From Halomicronema hongdechloris C2206 (lineage in GTDB: Bacteria; Cyanobacteriota; Cyanobacteriia; Phormidesmidales; Phormidesmidaceae), in NCBI RefSeq assembly GCF_002075285.3, contig NZ_CP021983.2, positions 2,730,001 through 2,762,000 on the forward strand: a DNA stretch of 32,000 nt, in the 5' to 3' direction. Position 1 is the first letter of the stretch. Each line of letters opens with the position of its first letter. Made by a program: the position numbers and the translations under genes. The notes beneath the pieces were generated by a model. That model ran no database searches and was not told where the DNA came from. It worked only from the letters and a program-made list of their open reading frames with translations. Shown here piece after piece: positions 1,361-32,000 of this stretch.

Positions 1361-1440
1361 GGCCGCTTCCTAGCACTTCCTAGCGTTGTCTAACGATTAG
1401 TGGCCTGAGCTTACCGCCGTTGGGGACCTTAATGCAAGCA

Positions 1441-2612: not shown

Positions 2613-2871
2613 GGGCCTAAGGGGGAGCGAGGACAGTGAACGCAGCTAAGGCAACCGCCATAGATATTGCAATTGCCGGCCAGATATAGCGAAAGGCAGA
2701 AGGAAAAAGGCAGAGGGTAGAATCAGGGTGCTTGCTAGGCAAAGAATTCACTGATTTGGCATGTCCTAACCTGGCTGACGACAGCGATAACTTCTGGAGC
2801 TGACGCTGTGCTCATTGTCTTCAGGACATCTCTGGTAGAGTCTTTTCGAGAAAACACCTAAACAATCTGAG

Positions 2872-2897
2872 TCAATGGAACAACTCAATGGAACAAC
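2872..2897. repeat. Perfect 13-bp tandem duplication (tcaatggaacaac x2)
   Basis: Read directly at 2872-2884 and 2885-2897. It sits in the 340-bp spacer between the amidase stop (2953) and the spoIID start (2612). Confidence 0.9.
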
Positions 2898-2952
2898 CAA
2901 ACCTTGTCCAGTTGTCCACCAGGTTGGCCCCCTCTGTCAAGGCTTAAGGGTC

Positions 2953-4314
2953 TCACAGTAAATTGGCCTGCTCATAGAGCCGTCGTAGAATTGCCATCAC
3001 CTTGGTGCCATAGTCCTTATCGAGATCCCAGCGTCCCCCCAATTGCCCCACCAACGGCGCTACTCCCCGCCGCACAAAGCGAAAGCGAGGGTCGACTAGC
3101 TCTTGCACCAGGGGTTCATTACTGCCATAGGCTTTCAGGTGCTGAATGTGGGCCCGCACCCCGATCTCCTCATAGGGGAAGCTCAAAGGTTCGCTGCTGC
3201 CACCGACATTACCGATGCCGCCAAAGTTGTTCTGCTGCCGAGTGAGTTCGCTATCAAATTGCAAAAATGAGGTCTCCAGGCACATCTGGGCAAAGGCCAC
3301 ATCGTAATTCACCCCTTCGATGGCGGCTTCTTCCCGATAGAGCTTGGGCAGCTTGGCCAAGGCAGCATCACTGAGAGATTTAGCGTTGTTACTCTCCAGG
3401 AACCGCATGAGCTGCAACTCGGTCGTGTTGCCATGGCCCATGATCCGATCGATTAAGCCCGGACAGACCTGCAGCGTCGCTTGGGATTTCAACAACACGG
3501 TGCGGGTCTTGCCATCCCAGCCCACGGAGATGTTGAAATCCCGCAGATCCACGGCCCTGATGTAGACCACATTGCGATAGCGCACCCGGCGGACATCGGG
3601 ATGGCTAGCCAAATCCAGATCTAATTGATCGGCCAAATCAATGGGGATGTAGGAATTATTGTTGATGATGATGCCCTGCTCCCCGTAGAGACCACCATTG
3701 AGACTGATGTCAATGGCAGGAAATTGGCCCTCTACGCTGGGGGAGTTGGTGGTGACGGCCCGGCTCCAGGAGGCCAGTCCATCGGCTAGGCCCAGGGCCA
3801 TCTCTTCGCGGCGATTTTGGATCAGGGCTAAATCTTCGGGGTTAGAGAGGAACCCCACTTCCATCTGTAAGGAAGGGCAGTTAATCCGACGGCAGAAGGC
3901 CAAGCTACCCGTGCCTGAGGCAGTATCGGGCTTCACCCCTCGACTGGAGAGCTGAGGTAAGCGCCGCAACAGGGCTAATAGCATCAACTCGGCATGGGTT
4001 TTACGGGTGTCGTTGTTGGCGATGTAGTAGACCGTGGCGCCCCTGGTTTCCGGATTACTAAAGGAACCGGCGTGAATTTCCAGGGCCACATCGCTGAGCC
4101 CGCAGCGAGCATTGATCCACTCCAGGGTCTGCTCAGCACTGAGATCATCCCCCACCACTGCCACGTCAAAGCCTCGCGATCGCAACTCCGGCACCACCTG
4201 ATCCCGCAGCTTTTGCATCTCCGCGGCTTCTGTGGTGGTGGGGGTAAGAGAGCCTGGATCCCGTCGACCATTTTCATAACCACCGTGACCAGCTGATAGA
4301 AAAATCCGTGCCAT
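2953..4314 (-). CDS. Bifunctional cell-wall hydrolase: N-acetylmuramoyl-L-alanine amidase (Amidase_3-like) fused to a C-terminal glucosaminidase-like domain
   Basis: Intact 453-aa ORF. The N-terminus reads RIFLSAGHGGYENG..ALEIHAGS..SLQMEVGFLSNPED (amidase_3 zinc-site context). The C-terminus reads VNYDVAFAQMCLETSFLQF..NNFGGIG..HIQHLKAYG (glucosaminidase/LytD-like). It is on the same strand as, and directly upstream of, spoIID. Confidence 0.85.
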   Translation of the reverse strand: MARIFLSAGHGGYENGRRDPGSLTPTTTEAAEMQKLRDQVVPELRSRGFDVAVVGDDLSAEQTLEWINARCGLSDVALEIHAGSFSNPETRGATVYYIANNDTRKTHAELMLLALLRRLPQLSSRGVKPDTASGTGSLAFCRRINCPSLQMEVGFLSNPEDLALIQNRREEMALGLADGLASWSRAVTTNSPSVEGQFPAIDISLNGGLYGEQGIIINNNSYIPIDLADQLDLDLASHPDVRRVRYRNVVYIRAVDLRDFNISVGWDGKTRTVLLKSQATLQVCPGLIDRIMGHGNTTELQLMRFLESNNAKSLSDAALAKLPKLYREEAAIEGVNYDVAFAQMCLETSFLQFDSELTRQQNNFGGIGNVGGSSEPLSFPYEEIGVRAHIQHLKAYGSNEPLVQELVDPRFRFVRRGVAPLVGQLGGRWDLDKDYGTKVMAILRRLYEQANLL

Positions 4315-4516
4315 AACCCGATCTCGTTGCCAGCGTACCCCTGATCTACGCCCAGATGAGATGGTTTCTTGCCAAGACCTGACTCACCTGGTGCTGAACC
4401 GAGGATATCTCCGCCAGAATACCGCAATTGCCCGCCGATGGAACTAGTCTGCCAGGGCAGAAGCAGGAATGATTATCTTAAATGTCAACCCTGCCATGTC
4501 GGTGAGCAGGGCTGAG

Positions 4517-4735
4517 TCGCGTCGCATCGGCCAGGGATGGTGGACCTCGATAAGACTACGCTTAATCGTGTAGCTCGGGGGGCTCACCCGAGGGGATCTC
4601 GTTCCCCTCGGACTCCCACGACCAGGGCGAACCGCCGCCCTGGACCCCGCGGAAGGGCTTGTCGATTAGTCGTTCAGGATCGCGTCGCATCGGCAGGGTA
4701 GCCGGTTTTCTGCATTGGGCGCGGTTGCCGCGCCC
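4517..4735. repeat. 14-nt direct repeat pair bracketing three GC-rich hairpins (REP-like element or structured RNA candidate)
   Basis: tcgcgtcgcatcgg occurs at 4517-4530 and 4680-4693. Hairpin 1: ccgagggga/tcccctcgg (4588-4611, 9-bp stem). Hairpin 2: ccagggcg/cgccctgg (4622-4643, 8-bp stem). Hairpin 3: gggcgcgg/ccgcgccc (4717-4735). No credible ORF covers the region. Confidence 0.6.
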
Positions 4736-4816
4736 CTACCCTGTTCCCTTACCCTCTATCCGCTATCGGTCTACTTGCCCGCCCATCTACCGTTTCACAG
4801 GGAGCCAAACCATTCA

Positions 4817-5100
4817 CTCAAAACTCAAAACTCAAAACTCAAAACTCAGCCCTGCAGGCAGGCTCCGCCTTTCTTGAATACCGCTAGGCCATACACCCCA
4901 CTCCCCCAAAGCCCTTCGGGCAGGCTCCGCCTACACCCCATCACCCCCACCACCCCATCACCCTTTACTCACTCTTCACTCTGCTGCTACGCACGGCCAC
5001 AGCCCTACACTCTTCACTCTTCACTCTCCACTCTCCCCTACCCCCCCACTTCCCCACCTATTCACCTCCCGCTCTCCGCCCTCCGTTCTCCGCCCTCCGT
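4817..5100. repeat. Cluster of short tandem repeats in a strongly C/T-rich (plus strand) low-complexity tract
   Basis: CTCAAAA x4 plus a partial unit (4817-4848). CACTCTT/CACTCTC x4 (5008-5035). CTCCGCCCTCCGT(T) x2 (5074-5100). ggcaggctccgcct occurs twice (about 4856 and 4919). These resemble cyanobacterial STRR-type heptamer arrays. Confidence 0.8.
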
Positions 5101-7367
5101 CCGCCCCATCCCCCATCCACTCGCCTAGCCGCCAATCCCTCTTCTGCCCCGCTCGGAAACGACGGCCAGATTTTCCCTGATTTTTTAGCGGCTTTGGGGC
5201 GATCGGAGGCGGCCTCTGAGCGCATGGAGAGCCCGATGCGCTTCAGCTCAGTATTCACCTCCAGCACCCGCACCGTGGACCACCTGGCCCACCTTGACAA
5301 TGGCCTTGGGATCTTTGACGAAGTGGTCCGCCAGTTGGGAGATATGAACCAGGCCATCCTGATGGACGCCGATATCCACGAAGGCGCCGAAGTTAGCGAC
5401 GTTGGTAACCACCCCTTCTAGGATCATGCCGGGGCTGAGGTCGGTGATCTCGTTGACTCCCTCGCGGAAGCGGGCGTAGGTGAAGTGATCGCGGGGGTCA
5501 CGGGCCGGGCTTTTTCAGCTCTTCTACGATGTCTTGCAGGGTGGGCAGCCCGACGCTATCAGAGACATAGCGCTCTAGCGCTAGGGATTGCAACCGCCCC
5601 GTGGATTGCAATAGCTGCCCTAGAGGCAGTTGCAGGTCCTGTGCGATCGCATCTACCAGGCCATAGCGTTCCGGGTGCACCGCCGTGTTGTCTAGAGGTT
5701 GATCGCCATCGCGGATGCGCAGGAAACCTGCCGCCTGTTCGAAGGCCTTAGGACCCAATTGCTTCACCTGCAGCAACTGCTGCCGCTGCCGGAAGGGGCC
5801 ATGGCGATTGCGGTGGGCCACGATGTTGTTGGCGATGGTGCCAGTGATGCCAGAGACATAGGTGAGCAGCTCCTTGGAAGCCTGATTCACATCCACCCCG
5901 ACATAGTTGACGCAGCTCTCCACGGTGTCGTCTAACTTCTGCCGCAGTCGGGTCTGGTCCACATCGTGCTGGTACTGCCCCACGCCGATGGACTTGGGAT
6001 CGATTTTCACTAGTTCTGCCAGGGGATCCTGCAGCCGCCGGGCAATGCTAATGGCCCCCCGCACGGTCACATCCAGGTCAGGAAACTCCTGCAGAGCAGC
6101 CTCACTGGCGGAGTAGACCGAGGCCCCGGCTTCATTCACCATCACCGTCACCGGGGCGGCATCCAACTGGGCGCAGACATCGGCCACGAAGCGCTGGGTC
6201 TCGCGGCTAGCGGTGCCGTTGCCGATGGCGATCAGTTCGATCCGGTGAGTCTGGATCAGCCGCTTCAGGGTGGTGGCCGCCCTGGTGGCGCTGGCCTGGG
6301 ATTGGTGGGGAAAGATGGCCTCATAGGCCAGAAACTTGCCGATGCGGTCACCCGCCGCCAGCTTGCAGCCGGTGCGAAAGCCGGGGTCGACCCCCAGGGT
6401 AGGCTTCATGCCGGCCGGGGCCGCCAGCAGTAAATGCTTCAGGTTGGTCTCGAAGGTGGCGATGGACACCTCATCGGCCCCAGCCTTTTTATCCGCCATC
6501 ACTTCCCGAGTAATGGCCGGTCGCAACAGCCGGTTGAAGGCATCCTGGATTAAGTCTCGGTAAAAGGCCCGCAGCTCAGGAACTGCAGTGGTAATGAGCT
6601 GAGACTCTAGCTGGGCCAGGAGCTGCTCCGTATCCACGGTCAGACTCAGCTTGAGAATCCCTTCCTTCTCTCCTCGCAGCAGGGCCAGGAGATTGTGGGA
6701 GGCAATGGCTGGCACCGGGCATTGGTAACGGCGGTACATCTCGTACTTGGTGGTGCCGGGGGGATGCGTTTTCTTGATGGTGGCCGTAAAGACTCCCTGC
6801 TGCAGAAAAATCCGCCGCACCTGGGCCCGCCGGGCGGCCTGCTCCGCCACCTGTTCCGCCAGAATGTCGGCGGCTCCCCGCAGGGCCTCCTCTGCAGAAG
6901 TCACTCCCTGGTCGGCGGCGACATAGGGCATTGCCTCCTGGGTCAAGGATGACACCGCCACGCCCGTGTGGTTCAGCTGCTGCAGCCGTTCTGCCAGAGG
7001 AGCTAACCCTTTTTCTCGGGCCACGGTAGCCCGGGTACGGCGCTTGGGCCCGATAGGGCAGGTAGAGATCTTCGAGTTCGGTCTTCTGCTGGCAGCCTTC
7101 GATTTGGGCCTGTAGCTCTGGGGTGAGGCCACCTTGAGCTGCGATCGCATCTAGAATACTGCGCTTCCGCTCCGCTAGCTCCTGTAAGTAGCGATGGCGC
7201 TCAGCAATTTGCCGCAGTTGCACCTCCGTCAGCTCCCCGGTCCGTTCCTTACGGTAGCGGGCGATGAACGGCACCGTGGCTCCCACCGCCAGAAGGGCCA
7301 GAGCTGCCTGGACTTGGGCGGGTTTCAGGTCGAGTTCAGCAGCAATCTGTTGATGAAAGGTACTCAT
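5058..7367 (-). pseudogene. tex: Tex-like transcription accessory protein (S1 RNA-binding domain) with at least 3 frameshifts
   Basis: The N-terminus (ORF 6576..7367) reads MSTFHQQIAAELDLKPAQVQAALALLAVGATVPFIARYRKERTGELTEVQL. The core (5498..7150) carries the YqgF/HhH regions. The S1 domain ([46 protein letters not shown] then [19 protein letters not shown]) is split between frames. Extra bases lie at about 7049-7051 (ccc), about 5505 (cc) and about 5277 (gg). The C-terminal end point is uncertain. Confidence 0.85.
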
Positions 7368-7421
7368 CTGCAGGGTAGCGTCAGTCGGGTTAGGAGCCTA
7401 CATTTCTACTTCAGTACATCT

Positions 7422-7958
7422 CTACTTCAGATCGAGGAGGCCCGTCTCCTTCAGCTTAGGATTAAACCGCAGCTCCATTTGCACCCCCCGCTGCTGCAAT
7501 TTCTCAAGAATCTCAGCCTCTAACCGCCGGGCAATTTTCTTCAGATACTTTGTCTGGGCCAGGTCATCCAACCCCTTGTATTCCTCCCATTCGGCAGCAC
7601 TCATGGTGCGTTTAGCATCGACGGGCTGGGTCCAGGCCTCAGCAGCGTCCCCATTCCCAGGCGGCAGGGCTCCATTTTCAGCAATCCAGGCGTTGCGAGT
7701 CTCCTCCAGCACCGTCCGACTAGGACGAGCAATGGTTTGCAGCTTAACCCAATGGCAGCCATCGGGCTGCCGCACCAGGTGCTGCTTCAAGCTCAAGTAG
7801 ACATCCCGAGAATACCCCACGTACTGCAGGTCCTGGACGGCATCGAAGATGGCATAGATGCCCACTTGCCCCTGAAATTGCTCGGAAATCTGGCCATTTT
7901 CCAAATAAGGCCGAGCCTCGAGTTGAGTCAGGCTAGCCATGGACTGGGAAGAGGTCAT
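7422..7958 (-). CDS. GIY-YIG-like domain protein (conserved cyanobacterial type)
   Basis: The ORF track gives 7422..7988; I prefer the ATG at 7958 (MTSSQSMASL). GIYAIFDAVQDLQYVGYSRDV fits the GIY-(10-11 aa)-YVG pattern. Confidence 0.6.
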   Translation of the reverse strand: MTSSQSMASLTQLEARPYLENGQISEQFQGQVGIYAIFDAVQDLQYVGYSRDVYLSLKQHLVRQPDGCHWVKLQTIARPSRTVLEETRNAWIAENGALPPGNGDAAEAWTQPVDAKRTMSAAEWEEYKGLDDLAQTKYLKKIARRLEAEILEKLQQRGVQMELRFNPKLKETGLLDLK

Positions 7959-8110
7959 AGGCACAACGCAGAAATCGACTCCCACCAATAAGACCAGGGT
8001 AAGTTCACCATAGGGGCATTAGGGGGCACTCTGGTCTCGCCATTCCTCCCCTACAGCATTGCCTGGCTGGGTAAGGTACAGCTTACCTCCTGAGATCGAG
8101 GGTGTCATGG

Positions 8111-8470
8111 TCATCCGCGTGCCTCACTAGCCTCAGAAACGCTGTGACCTAGTTTGCGATAGACCGCACAGAGCCGGCTAGGCTGAAAGATCTTGGCCTT
8201 GAACATAAACGGCGGCGGCACATTGATGATGATATAGTCTGGCGAATTGTGGTAAGGCTCAAACTCCGCTGGCATGCCCTTGGGAGTGTTTCGAGTATAG
8301 GGCAGCGGTTGAAATAATTTGGCCGTGAATTCCACGCACTCAGCCTGGGCCTGTTGGCACACCTGCTGCAGAAAGCTCGGTGCGCACAGCAACCCGAATA
8401 GAGTTTGCTGTGCCTCAAGCTCTAGAGAAAAACGGCTGTCGTAATTGTCGATAACTTTGAGTCGCACCAT
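8111..8470 (-). CDS. Hypothetical protein (about 119 aa)
   Basis: Single long ORF in this interval with unbiased composition (VRLKVIDNYDSRFSLELEAQ..PDYIIINVPPPFMFKAKIF). I recognise no family. The ATG at 8470 is preferred over the TTG at 8476. Confidence 0.5.
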   Translation of the reverse strand: MVRLKVIDNYDSRFSLELEAQQTLFGLLCAPSFLQQVCQQAQAECVEFTAKLFQPLPYTRNTPKGMPAEFEPYHNSPDYIIINVPPPFMFKAKIFQPSRLCAVYRKLGHSVSEASEARG

Positions 8471-8662
8471 AACCAAAGGAGATTCCAGCAGCCCTAGGAG
8501 GGCATTGCCACCCTACTACTAAGGGCTGTTGCTGCTAGCCTATAGCGTGGCTGGGGGTGGAACCAAGAGCTCTGACGTTAAGAATCGTGTCTGGGCAACA
8601 GCAACCCCAAGCTAGGATCAGAGGCTTAAGGAGGAGATAATCTTTGCTGCCCCGAGCGACCT

Positions 8663-8779
8663 ATGCAATCTGCCCGCGACTTAGTGAAGGTACTAGTAAC
8701 CATCCTGCTTCTTGCCTTCATTGGCCTCAACCTATTTCGCCTGACCATCTTTTTCCTGCAAGCCCAGCACCTGATCTAA
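8663..8779 (+). CDS. Possible 38-aa single-pass membrane peptide
   Basis: My translation is MQSARDLVKVLVTILLLAFIGLNLFRLTIFFLQAQHLI, with one clear hydrophobic helix. It is too short for the ORF track. No well-spaced Shine-Dalgarno sequence. Confidence 0.3.
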   Translation: MQSARDLVKVLVTILLLAFIGLNLFRLTIFFLQAQHLI

Positions 8780-8942
8780 GCAAGGGACCGATTCAACACA
8801 GGCCCCTAGTGTGTCTAAGCTAAGGAGACGTCGCCATCCCCGCCAGCTTCTCTGCCATTACTTGTAGAGGATGGTCGATGGAATCAAATCATGCCCGCCA
8901 CCGTACCCCACAACGGCATGGCAAAAGAGTCTGACTGCACCG

Positions 8943-9230
8943 TTACCGTACAAGCCGACGATAGTCAGGGTAAGAAGGCTCATCCGAAGCGGTTTCATGG
9001 CAGGGATTCCCACAAGGACTTACCTGCCAGCCATGGCTGGGGGCCACTGAAGCGATTAGGGATTCCCAGACAGTGGTCACGGTCGCCGATGGCAATGAAT
9101 GGGAGGGGACGCTCCCCTCAGGATCGGCGCTATCAGCAGGAGAGGGATCAGCAGGGTTAGAGCAGGCCACCAGGGCAGTGGCCATGAAGCTAAGCCCCAG
9201 CAGGGCTGTACGAGCAAGACAACAGGTCAT
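8943..9230 (-). CDS. Putative small lipoprotein
   Basis: An internal Met of ORF 8943..9323 gives MTCCLARTALLGLSFMATALVAC|SNPADPSP. This is a signal peptide with lipobox L-V-A-C followed by a Pro/Ser/Asp-rich linker. Confidence 0.45.
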   Translation of the reverse strand: MTCCLARTALLGLSFMATALVACSNPADPSPADSADPEGSVPSHSLPSATVTTVWESLIASVAPSHGWQVSPCGNPCHETASDEPSYPDYRRLVR

Positions 9231-9700
9231 AGAGATTATCCATGGAGAAGAATCCCCGGTCCCCCTCCCTGGCTCCACCCAGCTTGGAACGGCAGGGTCT
9301 ACGGGAAGGTGCCGACGGAACAAATTGGCAGCCCTAGGAGGATGCGGCTCTGAAAGGAGGGAGATCCCTTAGGACCCAGAGTACTTGAACGGTAACGATA
9401 GACATGTCGGCGGCTGGGGTGATCTCACCAGGGCGGTTCCATCTGAGCACCGTCGGTTTCGCCACAGCCATCCTCTCAGATCTAGACTCGGACAGGGAGC
9501 AACACGCAGCTTAATCGATTATGGACGAAACCCCAGGAATTGACTGGTCGTTTCACAAATGGATACAGCCGTACTCAAGGGCATGCCGCTCAGCACCCAG
9601 GCTCACCCTTGACCATCAGCCAGCAGAGGGGACTGGAGAAACGAGTATCCCGAATCACGCCAGTGTTATAGGTGTAGCTGTGTCCTTAATTTGATCAACT

Positions 9701-10075
9701 ATGACGTCTTCCTTATCCCAGGCGCTGGATCAGTTTGCTCAGCAGTTAACCGTGCTACACCAGCAGAGTCGCCAGGCGAATCCGGATGGTCGCCACCTAC
9801 AGGCACTGTTCCTGACGACTCAGCAGCAGTTTCAGGCGTTTCTGGCCCTAGTAGAACAGACAGAGTTAACTACGGCGGTGGAGGTGCCGTTGCGATCGCT
9901 GCAGACGGAGGTGAACCGTCATTTGCGGTTGTTGGGTATGGATGTGGCGTTCTTGCAGGCGGCCCGGCAGCCTCAGACGGTACAGCAGCGGCAGGCCCAA
10001 ATGGGCGATCGCATCCGGACGCTGGAGCAATTTTGTCAGGGGTTACAGCAGACCCTAGCCCAGGAAAAGCCGTAA
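9701..10075 (+). CDS. Conserved cyanobacterial 124-aa helical protein, possibly PatD family (heterocyst frequency control protein-like)
   Basis: Intact ORF rich in Gln and Leu. The LQTEVNRHLRLLGMDVAFLQAARQPQTVQQRQ..LEQFCQGL block matches my recollection of PatD-family proteins. This is not verified by any search. Confidence 0.45.
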   Translation: MTSSLSQALDQFAQQLTVLHQQSRQANPDGRHLQALFLTTQQQFQAFLALVEQTELTTAVEVPLRSLQTEVNRHLRLLGMDVAFLQAARQPQTVQQRQAQMGDRIRTLEQFCQGLQQTLAQEKP

Positions 10076-10139
10076 TTGGGCTAGAAACAGAGCAGCTCAA
10101 TGGTTTAATGGTTAAGAATAACTGGCGAGGAGCAACGGC

Positions 10140-10708
10140 TTGTATCAATGTCCCAAAGAGGGTCAGGTTGACCTGGTTGCAGGCCCCCTCTCTACAGACT
10201 TGAAAGCTTACTGCTGTGAGAGTTGTGGTGGAGCCTGGATTGCTAAAGATACCTATCGCACCTGGCAGCAACAACAGCCAGCTTCGATTCCAACCTTGCC
10301 CGAGCGATTACCCACGGCCCAAGACGTTCAGTTTCAACCGGCCCCCTTTGATAGTCGGGCGGCCCTGTGCCCGGCCTGTCGTCACTATATGGTGCGAGGC
10401 CGGGTGAATTTGCAGGATGGAATGTTTTTTGTAGAGCGGTGCCCCAACTGCGAGGGATCTGGTGCGATCGCGGCGAGTGGGACGTATTACAACGGCTGGG
10501 GCTGGACACCCATATTGAGGATATTTTTTCTGGGGATTGGCAAGCCCAAATGCGGGCCTTAGAGCAAGCTGATCGAGAGCGTCAGGCCCTGCGGGAGAAA
10601 ATGGGGCCAGAGTTAGCTGCTCAGATCTTTGAGTTGGCTGATCGGCTGGAGCAACATCCCAACGGGGATTTTGGCGTGGCCTATTTGATGCGACGCTTTG
10701 AGGAGTGA
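10140..10708 (+). pseudogene. Zinc-ribbon (TFIIB-type zf) domain protein, one frameshift
   Basis: There are two CxxC-type ribbons (CPKEG..CCESCGGAWIAKDTY and CPACRHY..CPNCEG|IWCDRGEWDVLQRLGL). ORFs 10140..10562 and 10367..10708 join if one G is added to the run at 10454-10456. Confidence 0.7.
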
Positions 10709-10711
10709 GCC

Positions 10712-12333
10712 TTGGTGTTTGAACTCAGCCATGTGCGGGTGGCCTATCCTGGTCAAGAGCGCTGGGCCGTTGATGGCGTCTCATTGACCTTGGCTGCCGG
10801 AGAGAAGCTGGGGTTGGTAGGGGAGTCGGGCTGCGGTAAGAGCACGTTGGGACGGGCCGCCTTGCGACTGCTGCCCCCCCAGAGCCAGGTGCAAGGAGAG
10901 GTCTGGTTCAATGGCGAGGCCGTGCTGGAATTTACGCCCCAGCGGTTGCGGCAGTTTCGGGGGGAGGCCATTGCCCTGGTATTTCAAGACCCGATGACAC
11001 GGCTGGATCCGCTGATTGACCATTGGGGATCACTGCTTGGAGACCCTGCGGGCCCATCGTGCCAATCTATCCGGCGCGGCGGCCAAACAACGGGCGCTTC
11101 AGGTGTTGGAGGCGGTTAGCATCCCGGCCAGCCGTTGGAGCCAGTATCCCCATGAATTCAGTGGCGGCATGCGGCAACGGGTGGCCATTGCCCTGGCGTT
11201 GTTGTTAGAGCCTAGGGCTGATTGTGGCCGATGAGCCGACAACCAGCCTGGATGTCACAGTGGCGGCACAGATCTTGCAGGAACTCACCCGATTGTGCCA
11301 GGAATTTTCGACGGCCCTGATGCTAATTTCCCATGATCTATCACTGGTGGCGGAGTATTGCGATCGCATCGCGGTCATGTACGACGGCCAGCTGGTGGAA
11401 ATGGGGCAGGCTCAGCAGGTGTTGTACCAGCCCCAGCATGACTACAGCCGCACCCTGGTAGAATCGGCTCTGCATTTGCAACGGGCGCCGGGCAATGCCG
11501 CCTCAGAGACCGACCGGGATCCCCTATTACAGGTACACGATCTGACCCAGCACTACACCCTGGAGCAAACTCTGCTGGCCCGTTGTCTAGGTGGGCAGCA
11601 CAACCAGGTGATCAAGGCAGTAGATGGCGTTTCTTTTGACCTTTATCCGGGGGAAATTCTGGGACTGGTGGGGGAGTCGGGTTGTGGTAAAAGCACCCTA
11701 TGCCGCAGTATTCTGCAATTGGTGCGGCCCACGGCAGGACGGGTGGACTTCCGGGGCCAAGATCTGAGTCAGCTATCGACCGCGGAGCTGTTGCCCCAGC
11801 GGCGACATTTGCAGATGATTTTTCAGGATCCCCGTGCCTGCTTGAATCCGATGATGACGGTGGGTCGGGGAATCATCGATCCCCTTTTGATTCATGGGCT
11901 AGCCAGTGCTCAGGAGGCGGCAGCCCATGGCCGCGCCATGCTAGAGCGGGTGGGCCTGATCCCCACCCAGGACTATGTCCACCGCTATCCGGGTGATCTC
12001 TCCGGGGGCCAACAACAGCGGGTAGCCATCGCCCGGGCCTTGATTACCCGCCCCAAATTGCTCATCTGCGATGAACCCGTGAGCATGCTGGATGCCACTG
12101 TGCAGGCCCAGGTGCTACAGCTGATGCTGGAGTTGAAGCAGGAGTTTGACCTGACCTATTTGTTTATTACCCATGACCTCTGGGTGGCTAAGTTTTTGTG
12201 CGATCGCATCGCCGTCATGCAGGCCGGCAAACTCGTAGAAATTGGCCCCACCCAGCAAATCTTCAATCAGCCCCAGCATCCCTACACCCAGACCCTGTTA
12301 CAGGCTGCTCCCTTGCTGGCCAAGGTCGCCTAG
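10712..12333 (+). pseudogene. ABC transporter ATP-binding protein with two fused ATPase domains (DppD/DppF, oligopeptide/nickel-type), two frameshifts in the first domain
   Basis: Walker A GESGCGKST occurs twice. Signature motifs are FSGGMRQRVAIALAL and [15 protein letters not shown]. Walker B motifs are LIVADEPTTSLD and [12 protein letters not shown]. The three track ORFs (10712..11119, 11016..11234, 11224..12333) join after correcting an extra T at about 11016-11017 and an extra G at about 11215-11217. Confidence 0.85.
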
Positions 12334-12353
12334 AGAACTATCTAGAGAACTAT
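12330..12353. repeat. Perfect 12-bp tandem duplication (ctagagaactat x2) abutting the tRNA-Leu 3' end
   Basis: Read directly at 12330-12341 and 12342-12353. Copy 1 contains the ABC gene stop codon (tag 12331-12333). The last base of copy 2 is the tRNA discriminator position. Confidence 0.9.
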
Positions 12354-12434
12354 GCGGATGGCGAGACTCGAACTCGCAAGGCTATCGCCACACGCCCCTC
12401 AAGCGTGCGTGTCTACCAATTCCACCACATCCGC
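12353..12434 (-). tRNA. tRNA-Leu (anticodon GAG), class II with long variable arm
   Basis: The reverse complement folds by hand: acceptor GCGGATG/CATCCGC, anticodon stem CACGC/GCGTG with loop TTGAGGG (anticodon GAG), variable arm TGGCGATAGCCTT, T-arm GCGAG TTCGAGT CTCGC, discriminator A. No encoded CCA. Confidence 0.9.
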
Positions 12435-12746
12435 ATGCCACATCCGCCGCGCAGTATATCCCTATCGCTACCTGAGATAGGCACCAGTCATAGCGTATCG
12501 ATTTCTAACAATAGATCATAATCGCCCCTTTGCCACGGAAAATTTTTCTGGACGGCGCCGCCACCGCCCCGGCAGGGCTAAGGAGTAGCCCCGTGGTAGG
12601 ATGAGCTACCGTCATCCATGGTAGAGTCCCGGCGTCTTCCCCTGGAACAGCCTTTCTGCTTTGCCCTGCGACCGGCGTTTCATAGGGACGGTTCCCCAGT
12701 GGTGCTGTGGGCTACCAATCTGTATCAAAGGACCCGATTCGATCTG

Positions 12747-26478: not shown

Positions 26479-27798
26479 ATGCCGATTCAGCCCTTTATCA
26501 CGCCACCAGCTGCGTCCCACTACTGGCTTACCCAGGCTCGTATCCCTCTGTCCTTACTGGCACTGGCCGAGCCTTCCTTGCCGTCCATAGATCCGGACCT
26601 GGTCGCGGCTGACCTTGAAATCAAAGACGGTGCCATTGCCACCATCGTTCCTGCCGGGACGGCTGCCGATTCCCAAGCAACGATTTCCCTGAACCAGGCC
26701 ATGATCTGGCCTGGCTTTATCGATATCCACACCCACCTAGATAAAGGGCATATTTGGCCCCGCCAACGTAATTCAGATGGCACCTTTGACCAAGCCCTAA
26801 TGGCCTCAGAGCAAGATCGGCAGGTGCACTGGAACGCCGACGATCTCTACCGGCGTATGAGCTTTGGCCTGCGTTGTAGCTATGCCCATGGCACCACGGC
26901 AGTACGCACCCATCTAGATGCCTTTGCAGCCCAAGCGCCGATCAGCTTCGAGGTATTCGAGACCCTGCGGCAGGAATGGGCTGGCAACCTGGAGCTCCAG
27001 GCGGTGTGCCTGGTTCCCCTGGAACTGTTGAAGACTGACTATGGCCCCATCCTGGCCGACCTGGTAGCTCAAGTAGGTGGCATCTTGGGCGGAGTGACTT
27101 ACGCTCATCCGGCTCTAGATGCCCTCATTGATCGGGCCTTTACCCTGGCCCAAGAACGACATCTGCCCCTGGATTTTCATGTAGATGAGAGTCTAAACCC
27201 TGACGATGATGCCTTGGGCCGCATTGCTCGGGCAGCCTTACTCTATTCCCTAGAGCAACCTGTGGTCTGTGGTCACTGCTGTAGTCTATCGGTGCAATCT
27301 GAGGCCAAGGCGGCCGAGACCATTAGCCTGATCAAGGCAGCCGGTATTGGTATCGTCAGTCTGCCCCTGTGCAATCTCTATCTGCAGCATCGGCGACCGG
27401 GTCGCACCCCTCGCTATCGCGGCATCACCCTAGTGCAGGAGTTGGCCCAGGCAGGGGTTCCAGTGGCCTTCGCTAGTGATAACTGCCGGGATCCATTTTT
27501 TGCCTACGGAGACCACGATGGTCTAGAGGTGTTCACCCAGTCTGTGCGCATTGGCCAGCTGGATCGGCCCTTAGGTGCCTGGCCCCGGGCCGTGACCCAA
27601 ACCCCTGCCGATCTTATGGGGCTGCCTCGGGCAGGTCGCATCGCCCCTGGCCTTCCCGCCGATTTGGTGATCTTTCCAGCCCGTAGCTTCAATGAGCTGC
27701 TGTGCCGTCCCCAAGCCGATCGCCTAGTATTGCGGCAAGGGAGAGCGATTGACTCTAGTCCACCAGCCTATCAAGAGTTGGATGCTCTGATGGGGTGA
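26479..27798 (+). CDS. Cytosine deaminase-like amidohydrolase
   Basis: 439 aa with the metal-binding motif FIDIHTHLDKGHIW, DFHVDES, and the C-terminal block YRGITLVQELAQAGVPVAFASDNCRDPFFAYG. That block parallels E. coli CodA [32 protein letters not shown]. Confidence 0.8.
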   Translation: MPIQPFITPPAASHYWLTQARIPLSLLALAEPSLPSIDPDLVAADLEIKDGAIATIVPAGTAADSQATISLNQAMIWPGFIDIHTHLDKGHIWPRQRNSDGTFDQALMASEQDRQVHWNADDLYRRMSFGLRCSYAHGTTAVRTHLDAFAAQAPISFEVFETLRQEWAGNLELQAVCLVPLELLKTDYGPILADLVAQVGGILGGVTYAHPALDALIDRAFTLAQERHLPLDFHVDESLNPDDDALGRIARAALLYSLEQPVVCGHCCSLSVQSEAKAAETISLIKAAGIGIVSLPLCNLYLQHRRPGRTPRYRGITLVQELAQAGVPVAFASDNCRDPFFAYGDHDGLEVFTQSVRIGQLDRPLGAWPRAVTQTPADLMGLPRAGRIAPGLPADLVIFPARSFNELLCRPQADRLVLRQGRAIDSSPPAYQELDALMG

Positions 27799-27801
27799 TG
27801 C

Positions 27802-27821
27802 CAGTTCTAACAGTTCTAACA
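27802..27821. repeat. Perfect 9-bp tandem duplication (cagttctaa x2, plus ca) at the left border of the low-GC islet
   Basis: Read directly, starting 4 nt after the stop codon (27796-27798) of the cytosine-deaminase-like gene. Confidence 0.9.
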
Positions 27822-28147
27822 AGTAGCTCCCCGACTCACCCAGGTAGGAGGTAGTCTACATACACGCATGACCATAAAACCCTTGATCTCAGCAGGCAGG
27901 CTGTACCTCAGGCGTGACTTTTAGCCGTTAGCCATTGGAATTTGGTCAGTCAATCGGGATATTCCAGGCACTTCTAGATGTTAAGGCAAGGCCATAGGCA
28001 TCTCAGACATCAAACCTTATCAACTAACCAGCTATATTAATGGCATGTGCTAGGTGGACATCCCTAAATCAAAGGGTGTGCTGTGGAGTCAGCTAACATA
28101 CCGTAGTTGGATTGCAGAGTTGCTATAGGCATCTATAGCCATAGGAT

Positions 28148-28780
28148 ATGGATTATCGGTTTTTGCAACAACATATCAAGCCTTATAAGGAAGCCGGCTA
28201 TACCACTATTCGACTCAATGCCCAAAAAAGTGTGCTTGAGAAGGAATATCACCGATTGCTGGGGCTCAATCTTTCATACCAGCAACTTGAGCAAGCGATT
28301 TTTAATCGCGAGAAGGATCGCATCAAAGCCATTGATCCCTTTGAAGTTTATGTGTTTCCTGAGCGTTACAAGCTTAATGAAATTAGGACAAAAGTTTTCG
28401 AATTAGCTCATGTCAGTAGTCTCCAAGAGCTTAGAGGAGAGTTTCCTGCTTTAAAAGACAAAGATTTTGACTTTCGTTACAAGTTGCCTTGGGTAGAATG
28501 CTTGCTGATGATTGCGAAAATTACTCAGCAAGCCCGTCTCAACCAAGAATTTTATGATGCAGTCGAGCGAGCTATCGAAATTGAATTGAAATCACTGGAA
28601 GATGACTTTTATCGCCATGAGACTTCTGACCTAGACCTGTATACACTTTTATCTGACAACAAACTTGCAGGTCCTGTTTTCCAGAAAAATCAATCAAATT
28701 CTAGCTCCCTAATGCGAGCTTATATTACACGAAAGTGTGAAAAAGTCGGGCTCAATCCCAGTGAATATTTTTTAGTCTAA
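28148..28780 (+). CDS. Hypothetical protein, 210 aa (islet gene 1), no family recognised
   Basis: Intact ORF in the low-GC islet with helix-rich composition and ordinary complexity (e.g. FELAHVSSLQELRGEFPALKDKDFDFRYKLPWVECLLMIAKITQQARLNQEFYDAVERAIEIELK). It ends 25 nt before gene 2. The overlapping ORF 28107..28406 is out of frame and implausible. Confidence 0.7.
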   Translation: MDYRFLQQHIKPYKEAGYTTIRLNAQKSVLEKEYHRLLGLNLSYQQLEQAIFNREKDRIKAIDPFEVYVFPERYKLNEIRTKVFELAHVSSLQELRGEFPALKDKDFDFRYKLPWVECLLMIAKITQQARLNQEFYDAVERAIEIELKSLEDDFYRHETSDLDLYTLLSDNKLAGPVFQKNQSNSSSLMRAYITRKCEKVGLNPSEYFLV

Positions 28781-28805
28781 ATCAATTGTTATAGGAGCTT
28801 ATTTA

Positions 28806-29498
28806 ATGAAATCTAGTCAATCCAGTCAAATTAGAGTCCTAATTGAAAAATTCAAACTGCGCCTCGAGGATTTTCCTCCTTATGAAAGAGATGGAAAACT
28901 CTATTTTCGCCGTACCGATACTGGAAAGGAAATTTCTTACTTGAAGGCAACCTGTGATGAGTTAAGACATGGACTAACCAATTATGAGACTCTATTAGCT
29001 GAAATCAAGACTCTTAGTTTCAAGCACTCTAGCATTAGGGATGCTGTTATTTACGCGATCAAGTACGAGGCAACTCGTAAAGTATATCATACCCAAAGGA
29101 TTGAATTAAGACGATATTATAATGCGCTCATAGCAAGATTAAAGAAGGGCAAAATAATAGAGCTAAGGAAAATTTCTGGAAAAGACAAAAAGACTCAAGA
29201 AGAAATTGAGCATCTAGAGAATATCAGAGATGCTTTATTAGCTCAAGTTAAGCAAAAAGATAATGAGATTAGAAGCCTGCAGAAGCAAGTTAATGAGTAT
29301 ATTGGGCTCTGTGAAAAATATGCAAGAGATTGGTCCAAGGAAAAGTCAAGGCGTGAGCTGTTAGGTCGCAATAATAAATCCCTTGGAGCCTACAAAGGTC
29401 TCTATGGTCAAGAAAAGAAAAAGACAGCAGCCTTAAAGCAAGAAATCCAGCGGTTGCGAGCACATATCGCTAGCCTAGAGCAACAATTAGACGATTAA
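28806..29498 (+). CDS. Hypothetical protein, 230 aa (islet gene 2): N-terminal globular region plus C-terminal Lys/Glu/Gln-rich coiled coil
   Basis: AGGAG lies 8 nt upstream of the ATG. N-terminus: FPPYERDGKLYFRRTDTGKEISYLKATCDELRHGLTNYETLLAEIK. C-terminus: heptad-like EEIEHLENIRDALLAQVKQKDNEIRSLQKQVNEY..ALKQEIQRLRAHIASLEQQLDD. Confidence 0.75.
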   Translation: MKSSQSSQIRVLIEKFKLRLEDFPPYERDGKLYFRRTDTGKEISYLKATCDELRHGLTNYETLLAEIKTLSFKHSSIRDAVIYAIKYEATRKVYHTQRIELRRYYNALIARLKKGKIIELRKISGKDKKTQEEIEHLENIRDALLAQVKQKDNEIRSLQKQVNEYIGLCEKYARDWSKEKSRRELLGRNNKSLGAYKGLYGQEKKKTAALKQEIQRLRAHIASLEQQLDD

Positions 29499-29681
29499 TA
29501 GTCTGGGATATTAATCAATCCCTAAGTTCTCATACCAATTCCATAGAAAAAGTCACTTATGATTGGCAGAACTGAACCAGCCGGGCCTGGCGGTGTTTTA
29601 TGATCCTGAGGCAGGGTTGTCCTGCGCCAGCCCTCAGCCATCTGAGCTGCTGCTTCGCATCGTATTTCTAAACAGAACTCT

Positions 29682-30266
29682 ATGGCGCCGCCTCTGCCTC
29701 CCGATCTAACATCCCCGGATCCTAGTTGCGATCGCACCCTAGTGATACGCCTATATGCTGGCCAGGCAGAGGTCTTAGGGAAGCTCTATGACCGCTATGC
29801 CAGTCTGGTTTATACCCTGGCCCTGAAGATGTTAGGCAATGCTGAGGAAGCTGAAGATCTGACCCAAGAAGTGTTTATCACTCTTTGGCAGCAGCAAAAA
29901 TATGATCCCGATCGGGGCAGTTTGGGCAGCTATCTCGCCACCTATACCCGCTCTCGGGCATTGGACCGGCTGCGGGTGCAGGGAAACCGTCGACGCATTG
30001 TGCAGCAGTTTCGTGGGGTCCTAGCTAAGAACTCCCAACCCCCGACCCAACCCTTGGACCAAGCTAGCCAGCAGGAACAAGGACAGCAGCTACGGTCTGC
30101 TCTGGCCCAACTGCCTGCCACCGAACGAGAGGTGCTGGAAATTGCCTACTTCGAGGGATTAAGCCAATCTCAAATGGCTGCTCGACTCAACCTGCCCCTA
30201 GGAACTGTCAAAACCCGTTGCCGCCAGGGACTACGGCGGCTGCGCATGCTATTACACCAAGGGTAA
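29682..30266 (+). CDS. ECF-type (group 4) sigma-70 family RNA polymerase sigma factor
   Basis: Region 2: LYDRYASLVYTLALKMLGNAEEAEDLTQEVFITLW. Region 4: LPATEREVLEIAYFEGLSQSQMAARLNLPLGTVKTRCRQGLRRLR. Confidence 0.9.
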   Translation: MAPPLPPDLTSPDPSCDRTLVIRLYAGQAEVLGKLYDRYASLVYTLALKMLGNAEEAEDLTQEVFITLWQQQKYDPDRGSLGSYLATYTRSRALDRLRVQGNRRRIVQQFRGVLAKNSQPPTQPLDQASQQEQGQQLRSALAQLPATEREVLEIAYFEGLSQSQMAARLNLPLGTVKTRCRQGLRRLRMLLHQG

Positions 30267-30320
30267 GGGAATGATGCCGAACTATAGTCCACATCTGTTA
30301 CGCCCTAGGCGGTATCTGTC

Positions 30321-31052
30321 ATGACTTCATCTGCCCTTCCTGACAATTGGCAAGACCTCCTAGCGGGATATGTGCTGGGTGATCTAGATGCTGAGGAAAC
30401 AGCCCGTGTACAGCATTGGCTGAACCAGTATCCGGAAGTCACAGCGGAGTTAACGGCCCTGCAAGAGACCTGGCACAGCCTTCCCCAAGGTCTCCCTGCC
30501 CAAGCACCTCCTGCAACTCTACGGCAGCGAATTATGGCAGAGATTCAGCCCACCGCTACTGCCCCAAGGCAGGAGCGACGGCGTCCCTGGGCAGTAGTAG
30601 GCTTCAGCGGCTGGGCGCTGACGGCAGTCGCCCTTGTCAGCGTTGTCGTCGAAAATTATCAACTGCGTCAAGACAACCAGCAACAACAAGCTATCTTGGC
30701 CAGCATCAGTCAACCTGAAAACCAGCTGTACTTGCTGGCAGGAACCGACAATGCTCCCGACGCCACGGGTCGCCTCATTATTGACCCCAGCCAACAGTCA
30801 GCGCTAATAGCGACCCAGAATCTGCCATCACTACCAACCGATCAGGCCTACCGCCTGTGGACCTTGGCAGGTGACACCGACAACCCCATCTATTGTGGCC
30901 AGTTTAATCCTTCTGGTGAGGCAGCTTGGAGTCAGTGGTCCTTGCCAGATCCCGCCTGTCAGACTACTCCAGGTCAGTTTTTAATCACCCAAGAGTCAAC
31001 CCAAGCACCTCCCAACCCCCAGGGCCCTCTAGTCTTGCAGGGGCAATCATAA
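30321..31052 (+). CDS. Anti-sigma factor (RskA-like, single TM)
   Basis: N-terminal anti-sigma helix bundle (LLAGYVLGDLDAEETARVQHWL..ELTALQETW), a TM segment (WAVVGFSGWALTAVALVSVVV), and an extracytoplasmic RskA-type block (AYRLWTL..PIYCGQF). It starts 54 nt after the sigma gene. Confidence 0.85.
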   Translation: MTSSALPDNWQDLLAGYVLGDLDAEETARVQHWLNQYPEVTAELTALQETWHSLPQGLPAQAPPATLRQRIMAEIQPTATAPRQERRRPWAVVGFSGWALTAVALVSVVVENYQLRQDNQQQQAILASISQPENQLYLLAGTDNAPDATGRLIIDPSQQSALIATQNLPSLPTDQAYRLWTLAGDTDNPIYCGQFNPSGEAAWSQWSLPDPACQTTPGQFLITQESTQAPPNPQGPLVLQGQS

Positions 31053-31340
31053 TTGAGTTGGATTGGCTCGGTGGCAACCTCTATCAGTAAAGCGGCGATG
31101 AAGCAATTAGACTTTTTGATTAAGCAAGTATCAAGAAAGCCATACTTAGCAACCCGCCAACCTGACTCAAAGCTAGGCCTGAAGCTCAATTCAGCAATTA
31201 GCATCTGAGTTTCAACTGAGCTTTGAGATATCCACCAGGACATCCAGTTCAGTCCATCGCTCGTATCAACGTGGAAGCTGCCACTCCAGGAACAGCCTGG
31301 GTTGGCAATGCTCCCATTGTTGACACTCAAGCATAGCCCT

Positions 31341-32000
31341 ATGGATTTCCGAACGCCTCTATTAGGCACTGCCGCCGTTGCCGTCGCCACCTTTGCCCCC
31401 GCTCACGCCAACGCCGCTTCCCTATTCAAGGCCGATATCGTACCCCTGAACGAAGCTTTTGGCTCTACTGCCTCAGGATCGGCTCAGATCACCCTAGATC
31501 AGCCCAGCGAGACCCTGCGTACCCTGCGGGTCCAGATCGATGTCACCGGCCTACAAGATCTGAGCGACTTCGGCGGCATTCACGTCGCCCACATCCACGG
31601 CCAATTTAGCGGTAACGCCAGTCGCCCCCTATTCGACCAAGGCAATGGTCCCTTCTTCACCGGAGCAGGGGGAACAGCGGTAGAGTCCGTCCTGCCAACC
31701 CTAGCTGATGACATCGACGGCGACGGATTTCTCAACTTCATTGAAGGCCGGCCAGCCTACGGTCCTGTCGTGCTCAACCTGACCAGCGAACAACTACCGG
31801 CCTCACCTAGCGGCGTGCCTCCCTTGGCTCAATTTCTAGAATTAGCCAGCAACGGCACCATTGATCCAGCGGCTCTATTTCCCGCTGGCGACACCTTTTC
31901 CTTAGATACCACCTACCAATTTGACCTCACCGATCCCGACCAGGCCCGTCAGTTCAACAACCTGACTGCCTTAGACCAACGGGAAATCGTCATTCATGGC
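31341..32000 (+). CDS. Secreted protein, possibly CHRD-like domain; 3' end beyond the window
   Basis: My translation is MDFRTPLLGTAAVAVATFAPAHA|NAASLFKADIVPLNEAFGSTASGSAQITLDQPSETLRTLRVQIDVTGLQDLSDFGGIHVAHIHGQF..IDGDGFLNFIEG..REIVIHG. The frame is open to the window end, with a clear signal peptide. The domain call is tentative. Confidence 0.6.
   Translation, partial: MDFRTPLLGTAAVAVATFAPAHANAASLFKADIVPLNEAFGSTASGSAQITLDQPSETLRTLRVQIDVTGLQDLSDFGGIHVAHIHGQFSGNASRPLFDQGNGPFFTGAGGTAVESVLPTLADDIDGDGFLNFIEGRPAYGPVVLNLTSEQLPASPSGVPPLAQFLELASNGTIDPAALFPAGDTFSLDTTYQFDLTDPDQARQFNNLTALDQREIVIHG

Follow-up and report, generated by a model that had tools for sequence, protein, structure and literature searches.

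An AT-rich islet at 27801-29586 of the window analysed here (the whole stretch of 32,000 nucleotides (nt), positions 2,730,001 to 2,762,000 of NZ_CP021983.2 from the cyanobacterium Halomicronema hongdechloris C2206) is very probably horizontally acquired mobile-element cargo, namely a rare cassette of filamentous cyanobacteria, A-B(-C), here in its two-gene form. The islet carries gene A (XM38_026100; 28148..28780, plus strand), which encodes an all-helical orphan protein of 210 amino acids (aa), and gene B (XM38_026110; 28806..29498, plus strand), which encodes a basic coiled-coil orphan protein of 230 aa. Both proteins are exact matches to the products of H. hongdechloris C2206 under those two locus tags, for which no mention was found in the literature. 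The A and B families have no detectable relation to any described family, and it is the families that are novel; no new mechanism is claimed for them. As the best explanation of the whole we tentatively favour an origin in a phage or phage-plasmid, from which A and B would have been carried along to act as a nucleic-acid complex in conflicts between mobile elements and their hosts.

The islet stands out sharply from its surroundings. Its 1786 nt have a guanine-cytosine (GC) content of 0.401, as compared to a mean of 0.571 (standard deviation 0.025, range 0.510-0.624) for other windows of the same length in the 32 kb, a departure of z = -6.8, and in 300-nt windows the GC content goes from 0.56-0.62 to 0.35-0.44 across approximately 27800 to 29550. 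The published genome of H. hongdechloris has a GC content of 54.6% (PMC6416890). That the low GC merely reflects a lysine-rich coiled coil is ruled out by GC at third codon positions (GC3), which is 0.37 in A and 0.34 in B, far below the 0.54-0.69 of the four flanking genes; the drop is thus not an effect of amino-acid content. The initial annotation, which had described a compositionally foreign stretch with two intact, co-oriented open reading frames (ORFs) of 210 and 230 aa separated by 25 nt, the second preceded by AGGAG, is accurate on both counts: the coordinates of the ORFs and their 25-nt gap are as described, and the AGGAG ribosome-binding site of B lies at 28794..28798 on the plus strand, 7 nt before the ATG at 28806. 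In every chromosomal host measured the cassette lies 6-9 GC points under its flanks, and in Halomicronema it does so by 17 points, a gap that, as a matter of composition, points to recent acquisition from a donor with approximately 35-40% GC.

Synteny with one close relative, represented by a 2.4-kb Logan contig (L014), defines the islet independently of composition. Homology to L014 breaks at 27800, two bases beyond the stop codon of an amidohydrolase gene that is 83.5% identical in nt up to that point, and returns at approximately 29587 with an extracytoplasmic function (ECF) sigma gene, 78% identical in nt including approximately 95 nt upstream of its start codon. Between these two flank genes L014 holds an unrelated 424-nt segment without A or B, which contains at 1677-2006 (minus strand) a 109-aa PEP-CTERM / Choice_anch_L fragment, probably a truncated gene, overlapping the end of the amidohydrolase gene. 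No trace of this filler was found in the window, nor any of the islet in L014, and in remoter relatives (61-62% protein identity) yet other genes follow the amidohydrolase. Since L014 has a different filler between the same genes, the A-B stretch is lineage-specific, and since the contents after the amidohydrolase differ among relatives, the spacer is a variable spot; judged from these alignments, the amidohydrolase-sigma spacer is a site of turnover and A-B is lineage-specific cargo within it. The question raised in the initial annotation, whether the deaminase-like and sigma genes adjoin each other directly in relatives, is thus answered in part: they are neighbours in L014 and A-B is missing there, but the 424-nt segment lies between them.

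The extent of the islet from 27801 to approximately 29586 follows from synteny, which refines the span first proposed, and the leftmost ~110 nt hold a repeat found elsewhere in the host genome. This repeat, in the upstream spacer of the islet at 27862..27908 (47 nt), is 83% identical to the intergenic segment 8074-8120 on the minus strand and is probably one of the host's short dispersed repeats. The GC content at the left end of the islet is still approximately 0.5 and falls only after approximately 28000, which together with the host repeat indicates that the imported DNA probably begins near 27950-28000. A tandem CAGTTCTAA, present twice at 27802-27819, sits precisely on the synteny break, next to the stop codon of the amidohydrolase gene, and its weak inverted counterpart (72%) close to the opposite break, at 29557-29574, is not above chance; searches for terminal direct or inverted repeats and for a target-site duplication at the islet ends gave chance-level matches only. 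As the initial annotation had stated, no integrase, transposase or tRNA is attached: none of the four flanking genes scanned, the last of which ends at 31052, is a mobility gene, and the sole tRNA of the window, at 12352-12435, is 15 kb from the islet. An Rfam scan of 27500-29900 at E <= 1 gave no match. Among the usual marks of a horizontal islet, deviant composition and absence from the corresponding site of a relative are therefore present; an integrase or transposase (in the four flanking genes scanned), a tRNA target within 15 kb and direct repeats were not found.

The same pair of genes recurs in other cyanobacteria. In a search of 5.8 billion protein clusters, 18 clusters of B homologues turned up, always adjoining A, and for A 15 clusters with 54-65% identity and, besides these, a distant subfamily; the homologues come nearly all from metagenomes and metagenome-assembled genomes, and the census of contexts comprises approximately nine independent loci. 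The initial annotation had asked whether homologues of the two genes occur as neighbours in other genomes, and they do: wherever a lineage possesses both, the genes lie side by side on one strand (L001-L013, L017-L022 and L027-L030), with varied flanks and with identities that span 26-65%. The pair follows PhoU/PHO4 in L001/L002, lies between icd and an amylase gene in Oscillatoriales RM2_1_1 (L008/L009/L013) and has another upstream flank in L020; accompanied by a third gene, C, it adjoins rubrerythrin and hemF in L003-L007, L019 and L027-L029 and follows a CtpA-like peptidase and DUF1499 in L030. Typical cyanobacterial genes make up these contexts, among them those for PsbO, PetL, a phycobilisome linker, NDH subunits and OprB/SLH proteins. 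The distant subfamily (L011, L012), with 36-37% identity in A and 26-34% in B, has the same gene order with B in tandem duplicate (L011 6972-7640; L012 9053-9250), and its second B paralogue is nearer to window B (34%) than is the first (27%). Between distant lineages nt homology runs from 2-5 nt before the start of A to the last stop codon, and no conserved non-coding element upstream of A was found across lineages. A scan of GTDB species representatives, whose search patterns reach close relatives only, returned Oscillatoriales RM2_1_1 alone. Rarity is also apparent from an exhaustive profile search with A through 1.84 billion representative proteins, which yielded only six full-family representatives at E < 1e-10.

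In nearly all lineages neither ORF is disrupted. The ratio of nonsynonymous to synonymous substitution rates (dN/dS), computed for pairs with unsaturated dS, is 0.18-0.28 for A and 0.15-0.36 for B; on these sequence comparisons, both genes are under purifying selection. The Halomicronema proteins carry private changes at 5 of 64 otherwise invariant columns in A and at 5 of 59 in B, and in this they are like other divergent members. Some loci depart from the common plan. In L008 the spacer between A and B is 210 nt, as compared to 25-46 nt elsewhere, and B (10865-11701) is 278 aa long with its C-terminal unit, comprising the coiled coil and an NNQSLGAYK motif, duplicated. In L027 (8911-9597) and L028 (2007-2693) an in-frame TAA stands at approximately codon 14 of B and the called gene begins further downstream (198 aa), which could reflect decay or a restart in that lineage. 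In L001 (10704-12520) and L002 (6474-7496), from two JGI samples, B continues in frame into a group-2-type sigma70 with regions 1.2, 2 and 3, the region 4 of which lies in another frame with a 40-nt overlap. Additionally, PIN/VapB-like and BrnT/BrnA toxin-antitoxin pairs lie at places around the cassette that differ from strain to strain, the strains being otherwise homologous (L027 6554-7917; L029 2310-2943), and their insertion or rearrangement in L027-L029 marks the site as a variable accessory hot spot; no such pairs lie beside the copies of Halomicronema, L001, L008, L011, L012 or L030.

The initial annotation could place neither protein in a family, and systematic searches come to the same result. 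For A, no match was found in Pfam, PADLOC-DB v2 (2023), the defence library used throughout, NCBIfam or PDB sequences, a profile search of the latter included; PHROGs gave chance-level matches only, with E above 0.1, and Foldseek against the PDB and BFVD gave best E-values of 0.7-5 with template modelling (TM) scores below 0.3. The AlphaFold2 (AF2) model of A on the family alignment is all-helical, with a predicted local distance difference test (pLDDT) score of 85.8 and a predicted TM score (pTM) of 0.52. The protein is near neutral overall, with a basic N-terminus and an acidic C-terminus. Two smaller units can be discerned within it: residues 1-40, which are considered with the phage link below, and residues 75-125 (28370..28522, plus strand), a second helical module, two copies of which are matched in each of the small proteins P0161 and P0164, otherwise unrelated to A.

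For B, searches of Pfam, PADLOC, NCBIfam, PHROGs and PDB sequences gave coiled-coil noise only, a profile of its N-terminal domain found no match in the PDB or Pfam, and Foldseek against the PDB found none either (best E 0.7-5 and TM below 0.3, as across the searches with A). The AF2 model on the family alignment (pLDDT 86.2, pTM 0.46) has three parts. Residues 1-72 (28806..29021, plus strand) are predicted to form a small alpha/beta domain, in which DSSP assigns a helix at 5-19, strands at 26-28, 31-35 and 42-44, and helices at 50-57 and 60-69, and which bears the motif A-x-x-D-x-L-R-H-x-x-T-N-Y, invariant in both subfamilies. Residues 73-125 (29022..29180, plus strand) form a highly basic helix with an isoelectric point (pI) of 10.4 and a charge of +10. 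Residues 126-230 (29181..29495, plus strand) form a long coiled-coil helix, single from 128 to 229 in the model, with a conserved NNKSLGAYKGLY motif that is kept in both B subfamilies and duplicated in L008. The helices at 75-125 and 128-229 are modelled at pLDDT of approximately 90. Residues invariant in both subfamilies are P25, Y45, A48, D51, L53, R54, H55, T58, N59 and Y60 in the N-terminal domain and K86, E88, T90, R91 and Q97 in the basic helix, and Cys50 is nearly so. The whole protein has a pI of 9.7 and a charge of +17; most members fall within pI 9.2-9.7, and one distant homologue is at 8.4. Some sources label B a "chromosome segregation ATPase". Direct reading of its 230 aa found no Walker motif or P-loop, so that this label reflects coiled-coil similarity only, and an identity as a structural maintenance of chromosomes (SMC) ATPase can be rejected on the same ground, the NCBIfam SMC matches reaching 12-19 bits against cut-offs of 300-730 and covering the coiled coil alone.

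The description of the islet as holding exactly two genes fits the Halomicronema copy but not the cassette at large, since most close relatives have a third, translationally coupled gene. This gene, C, encodes 113 aa, follows B in most members of the close subfamily (L003 7788-8129; L019, L022, L027-L030), starts with GTG in a 4-nt overlap with the stop codon of B, and is 88-95% conserved among the loci that bear it. It is absent from the window, where no remnant of it was found, and from L001 and L008; a "113-aa" gene of L009 is unrelated to it. C has no match in Pfam, PADLOC or the PDB, and in PHROGs it has one weak match (phrog_5928, 2e-4) of unknown function; overall, PHROGs gives two weak matches for a homologous cassette and noise only for the window copies. 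Its pattern GRIDLL...ELIEVK bears a by-eye likeness to the PD-(D/E)xK motif.

What ties the cassette to phages is the N-terminal end of A. The profile search through 1.84 billion representatives recovered 57 further proteins, all but two of which match only the first 40 to 100 residues of A, and profile searches, tblastn and AF2 together delineate residues 1-40 (28148..28267, plus strand) as a basic helix-loop-helix module common to proteins of cyanophages and phage-plasmids. The module spans 38-40 residues, is often N-terminal and sometimes in tandem, has the consensus M-x-Y-R-E-L-Q-x-x-L-K-x-Y-K-x-x-G-L-T-x-I-K-L-N-S-K-K-x-V-L-x-A-E-Y-x-R-L, and is basic across the family (pI 9.2-10.1), with G17 near-invariant among 49 module sequences. 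In A, AF2 predicts helices at 3-16 and 27-38 with pLDDT above 90. Elsewhere the module is fused to Amidoligase_2 (phrog_2443), phrog_2319, phrog_625 and other bodies of unknown function. With the consensus as query, tblastn located it in ORF3 of Phormidium phage Pf-WMP4, which lies in the left-end early region where genes are annotated with host promoters, in the ORF3 homologue of Leptolyngbya phage Lbo240-yong1, in a protein with two modules, encoded next to Gp37/Gp68 and Bro-N genes on the phage-like plasmid p3 of Planktothrix agardhii, and in a DnaJ-domain protein on a Gloeothece plasmid; the cyanophage matches have tblastn E-values of 1e-6 to 2e-7 and, with the module hidden Markov model, independent E-values of approximately 1e-19.

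A further link is a lone A homologue in L026, without B or C, within a string of small same-strand ORFs (1205-12454). Its neighbours include a divergent HTH_3 repressor upstream, an RRXRR/HNH gene on the opposite strand (phrog_32617, 3e-124), KTSC, HicA and KilA-N, its GC content equals that of the surroundings (0.37), and the operon reads as prophage-like or plasmid-like. Among known genes, Pf-WMP4 ORF3 and its Lbo240-yong1 homologue, as moron or host-takeover genes, resemble the cassette in sharing a homologous module with A, and the cassette behaves like small AT-rich cargo without mobility genes; they differ in that the 40-residue module is all they have in common, N-terminal in A and C-terminal in ORF3, and in that the searched collections hold no phage homologue for B or for the remainder of A. 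A different likeness is to the SAP and HeH motifs, which the shape of the module recalls, being predicted to be helix-loop-helix and basic: two helices joined by a loop of approximately 10 residues with a near-invariant Gly, in approximately 38 residues that are promiscuously fused and sometimes in tandem. Unlike those motifs, the module has a loop approximately 3 residues longer, and A has no Pfam match to SAP, Rho_N or HeH. As a SAP domain proper the module was rejected, with an hhalign probability of 1.3% against a hand-typed SAP alignment and with no Pfam match for A; a profile of the module found no match among PDB sequences. As far as the models go, the resemblance to SAP/HeH is one of shape only.

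In the explanation that we tentatively favour, the islet would have come recently from a phage or phage-like plasmid, and the cassette would move among the chromosomes of filamentous cyanobacteria by lodging in variable intergenic spots. The basic character of B (residues 73-125 above all) and of the module of A leads us to infer nucleic-acid binding, and the two proteins may work together as a nucleic-acid-associated complex. B would dimerize via its coiled coil of approximately 100-150 residues and touch nucleic acid with its conserved N-terminal domain and with the strongly basic helix next to it, and A would be an adaptor whose basic module recognizes the partner, be it DNA or a host or phage protein, of the module-bearing phage proteins. 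Such a complex could take part in element-host conflict through phage exclusion or defence. Where C is present, its D...ExK motif and the coupling of its translation to that of B would make it the likely effector; since C is missing in Halomicronema, this copy may be a reduced version or a binding-only form. For the cassette as such, a role in mobile element-host conflict or defence is plausible, and we put it forward with reserve. Its most specific form, an undescribed anti-phage or exclusion system in which A, through a module taken over from cyanophage proteins, senses or competes for the target of those proteins, B is the basic coiled-coil scaffold on nucleic acid, C is a nuclease effector and the Halomicronema copy represents a variant with two components, is rather doubtful.

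The comparison with described defence systems cuts both ways. Like Lamassu with LmuB or Wadjet with JetC, the cassette is a short, sporadic, horizontally moved operon with a coiled-coil protein and, in one lineage, toxin-antitoxin neighbours, and its three-gene form adds a small protein with a nuclease-like motif. Unlike LmuB and JetC, B has PADLOC matches in its coiled-coil region only (E 2e-4 to 0.2), with no ATPase head and no recognised effector domain, and, unlike in defence islands, no defence genes are nearby in Halomicronema. Several further observations weigh against a role in conflict, or against the phage-borne complex more broadly. The PADLOC defence models returned nothing beyond coiled-coil noise, and no defence, toxin-antitoxin or mobility gene adjoins the Halomicronema copy among the flanking genes scanned. 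No enzymatic or known DNA-binding domain was found in A or B in the libraries searched, and the nuclease-like reading of C comes solely from the by-eye motif. Scans for promoters and terminators gave signals not above those of shuffled sequences. Neither full-length A nor B has a homologue among 50,697 phage records and 72,556 plasmids or in IMG/VR (scanned with A, B, P0155 and P0156), and tblastn or blastn with A, the B N-terminus and the whole islet against phages and plasmids likewise gave no match. The suggestion in the initial annotation that small operons of this kind are typical of anti-phage defence, abortive infection or toxin-antitoxin modules is not directly supported: there is no match to PADLOC or to a toxin-antitoxin family, the proteins are large, and the neighbourhood lacks defence genes. 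The sole contextual hints at a conflict role are the toxin-antitoxin pairs in L027-L029 and the links to phages and prophages.

Other explanations account for parts of these observations, all of them at lower probability. The initial annotation offered as an alternative a plasmid-derived maintenance pair of KfrA-like logic, that is, a DNA-organizing or replicon-maintenance pair left from a plasmid or phage-plasmid, with B as a DNA-binding rod, A as its partner, and a nucleoid-associated or partition-accessory function. The architectural analogy survives, since B, whose small operon comes from a mobile element, starts with a compact globular domain and goes on through a strongly basic helix into a long coiled coil, and it gains from the basic helix-loop-helix module of A, from the presence of that module on the phage-like Planktothrix plasmid and on the Gloeothece plasmid, and from the chromosome-segregation label that some sources attach to B. 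The homology that it would require was not found. B matches neither KfrA_N (PF11740) nor a winged helix, and at E <= 1 Pfam offers no other DNA-binding domain for it; KfrA_N is missing from the best 25 of the 37 Pfam matches of B and from all 15 of its N-terminal domain, the predicted topology of which is a helix, three strands and two helices. Moreover, tblastn of A and the B N-terminus in 72,556 plasmids gave no match, A has no counterpart in kfr operons, B lacks Walker motifs, and all contexts seen are chromosomal or phage-like. We regard this reading as unlikely. Equally unlikely in our estimate is that the islet is neutral debris, left by a prophage or plasmid in decay and carried passively into variable spots with no benefit to the host. 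The lack of mobility genes, of known domains and of a recognizable promoter, the absence of C in Halomicronema, the in-frame stop in B of L027/L028 and the fusion of B to a frameshifted sigma gene in L001 would all suit debris, but debris would hardly keep both ORFs intact in nearly all lineages, show dN/dS of 0.15-0.36 as under purifying selection, preserve the adjacency of A and B at 26-37% identity, or retain the invariant residues in the Halomicronema copies.

The remaining two alternatives we consider more improbable still. A more unusual sub-reading, which the B-sigma70 fusion and the downstream ECF sigma gene suggest, is that B acts on sigma factors; in its fuller form, sigma factors or RNA polymerase would be bound or tethered by B together with A, as is frequent for early proteins of phages, and this would account for sigma genes right downstream of the cassette. 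In two of approximately nine independent loci the gene next after B, on the same strand, encodes a sigma factor (the ECF gene in Halomicronema and the in-frame sigma70 in L001/L002), and the module occurs in ORF3 of Pf-WMP4, in a left-end region annotated with host promoters. Against this very doubtful link, no sigma gene lies near the cassette at other loci, L014 has the same ECF sigma gene without A-B and with a conserved 5' region, the association was noticed post hoc, and the fusion in L001, with sigma region 4 out of frame, may have arisen by chance as the gene decayed. Least probable of all is that A and B make up a hitherto undescribed kind of toxin-antitoxin or abortive-infection pair. 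Like type II toxin-antitoxin genes, they lie side by side on one strand as an operon with little space between them, were horizontally acquired and are mobile among variable islets, and BrnT/BrnA and PIN pairs adjoin the cassette in L027-L029. Nevertheless, 210 and 230 aa are large for type II pairs, which are typically below 150 aa, no toxin or antitoxin family is matched (the best toxin signal is sub-threshold, GnsAB_toxin at E 0.0048 and 17.2 bits against a cut-off of 27), and A alone in L026 and B in tandem in L011/L012 are atypical of a balanced pair. Since none of the comparisons with named families (PADLOC, type II toxin-antitoxin, KfrA, SMC, SAP and PD-(D/E)xK) succeeded overall, the families are best regarded as undescribed.

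Filamentous cyanobacteria and their phages are thinly sampled in PADLOC, PHROGs and Pfam, and to our knowledge few cyanobacterial defence or exclusion systems have been tested by experiment. Against this background, what has been defined is two always-neighbouring orphan families with a frequent third partner and a 40-residue module that connects them to cyanophage and phage-plasmid proteins. If the favoured account of phage-derived cargo engaged in conflict is right, the cassette is a small, clonable candidate for which matching phage-host pairs exist in Leptolyngbya boryana with Lbo240-yong1 and in Phormidium with Pf-WMP4; if the islet is neutral prophage debris, its interest is local only.

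The native genes on either side complete the picture of the locus. On the left, the amidohydrolase gene (26479..27798, plus strand) matches Amidohydro_3 in Pfam at 6.8e-35 and is cytosine/pterin deaminase-like, labelled pterin or cytosine deaminase in source annotations; its protein is 81% identical in L014. On the right (29682..31052, plus strand), the ECF sigma gene at 29682-30266, identified by the Pfam domains Sigma70_r2 and r4 and with its N-terminus conserved in L014, is followed by an RskA-type anti-sigma gene at 30321-31052. The region 5' of the sigma gene (29587..29681, plus strand) is native, with approximately 78% nt identity to L014 2124-2214, and since it is kept in L014, the sigma operon probably retains its own 5' region. 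Just past the anti-sigma gene, at 30900-31350, there is a second, milder dip in GC content (0.47-0.49). The initial annotation had also noted that several native genes elsewhere in the window are frameshifted, which can be seen at least in a Tex-like gene on the minus strand that occupies two overlapping frames, one (6576-7367) encoding Tex_N and the other (5498-7150) the central, YqgF and HHH domains; the split reflects either a true frameshift in a native gene or an error in the sequencing.

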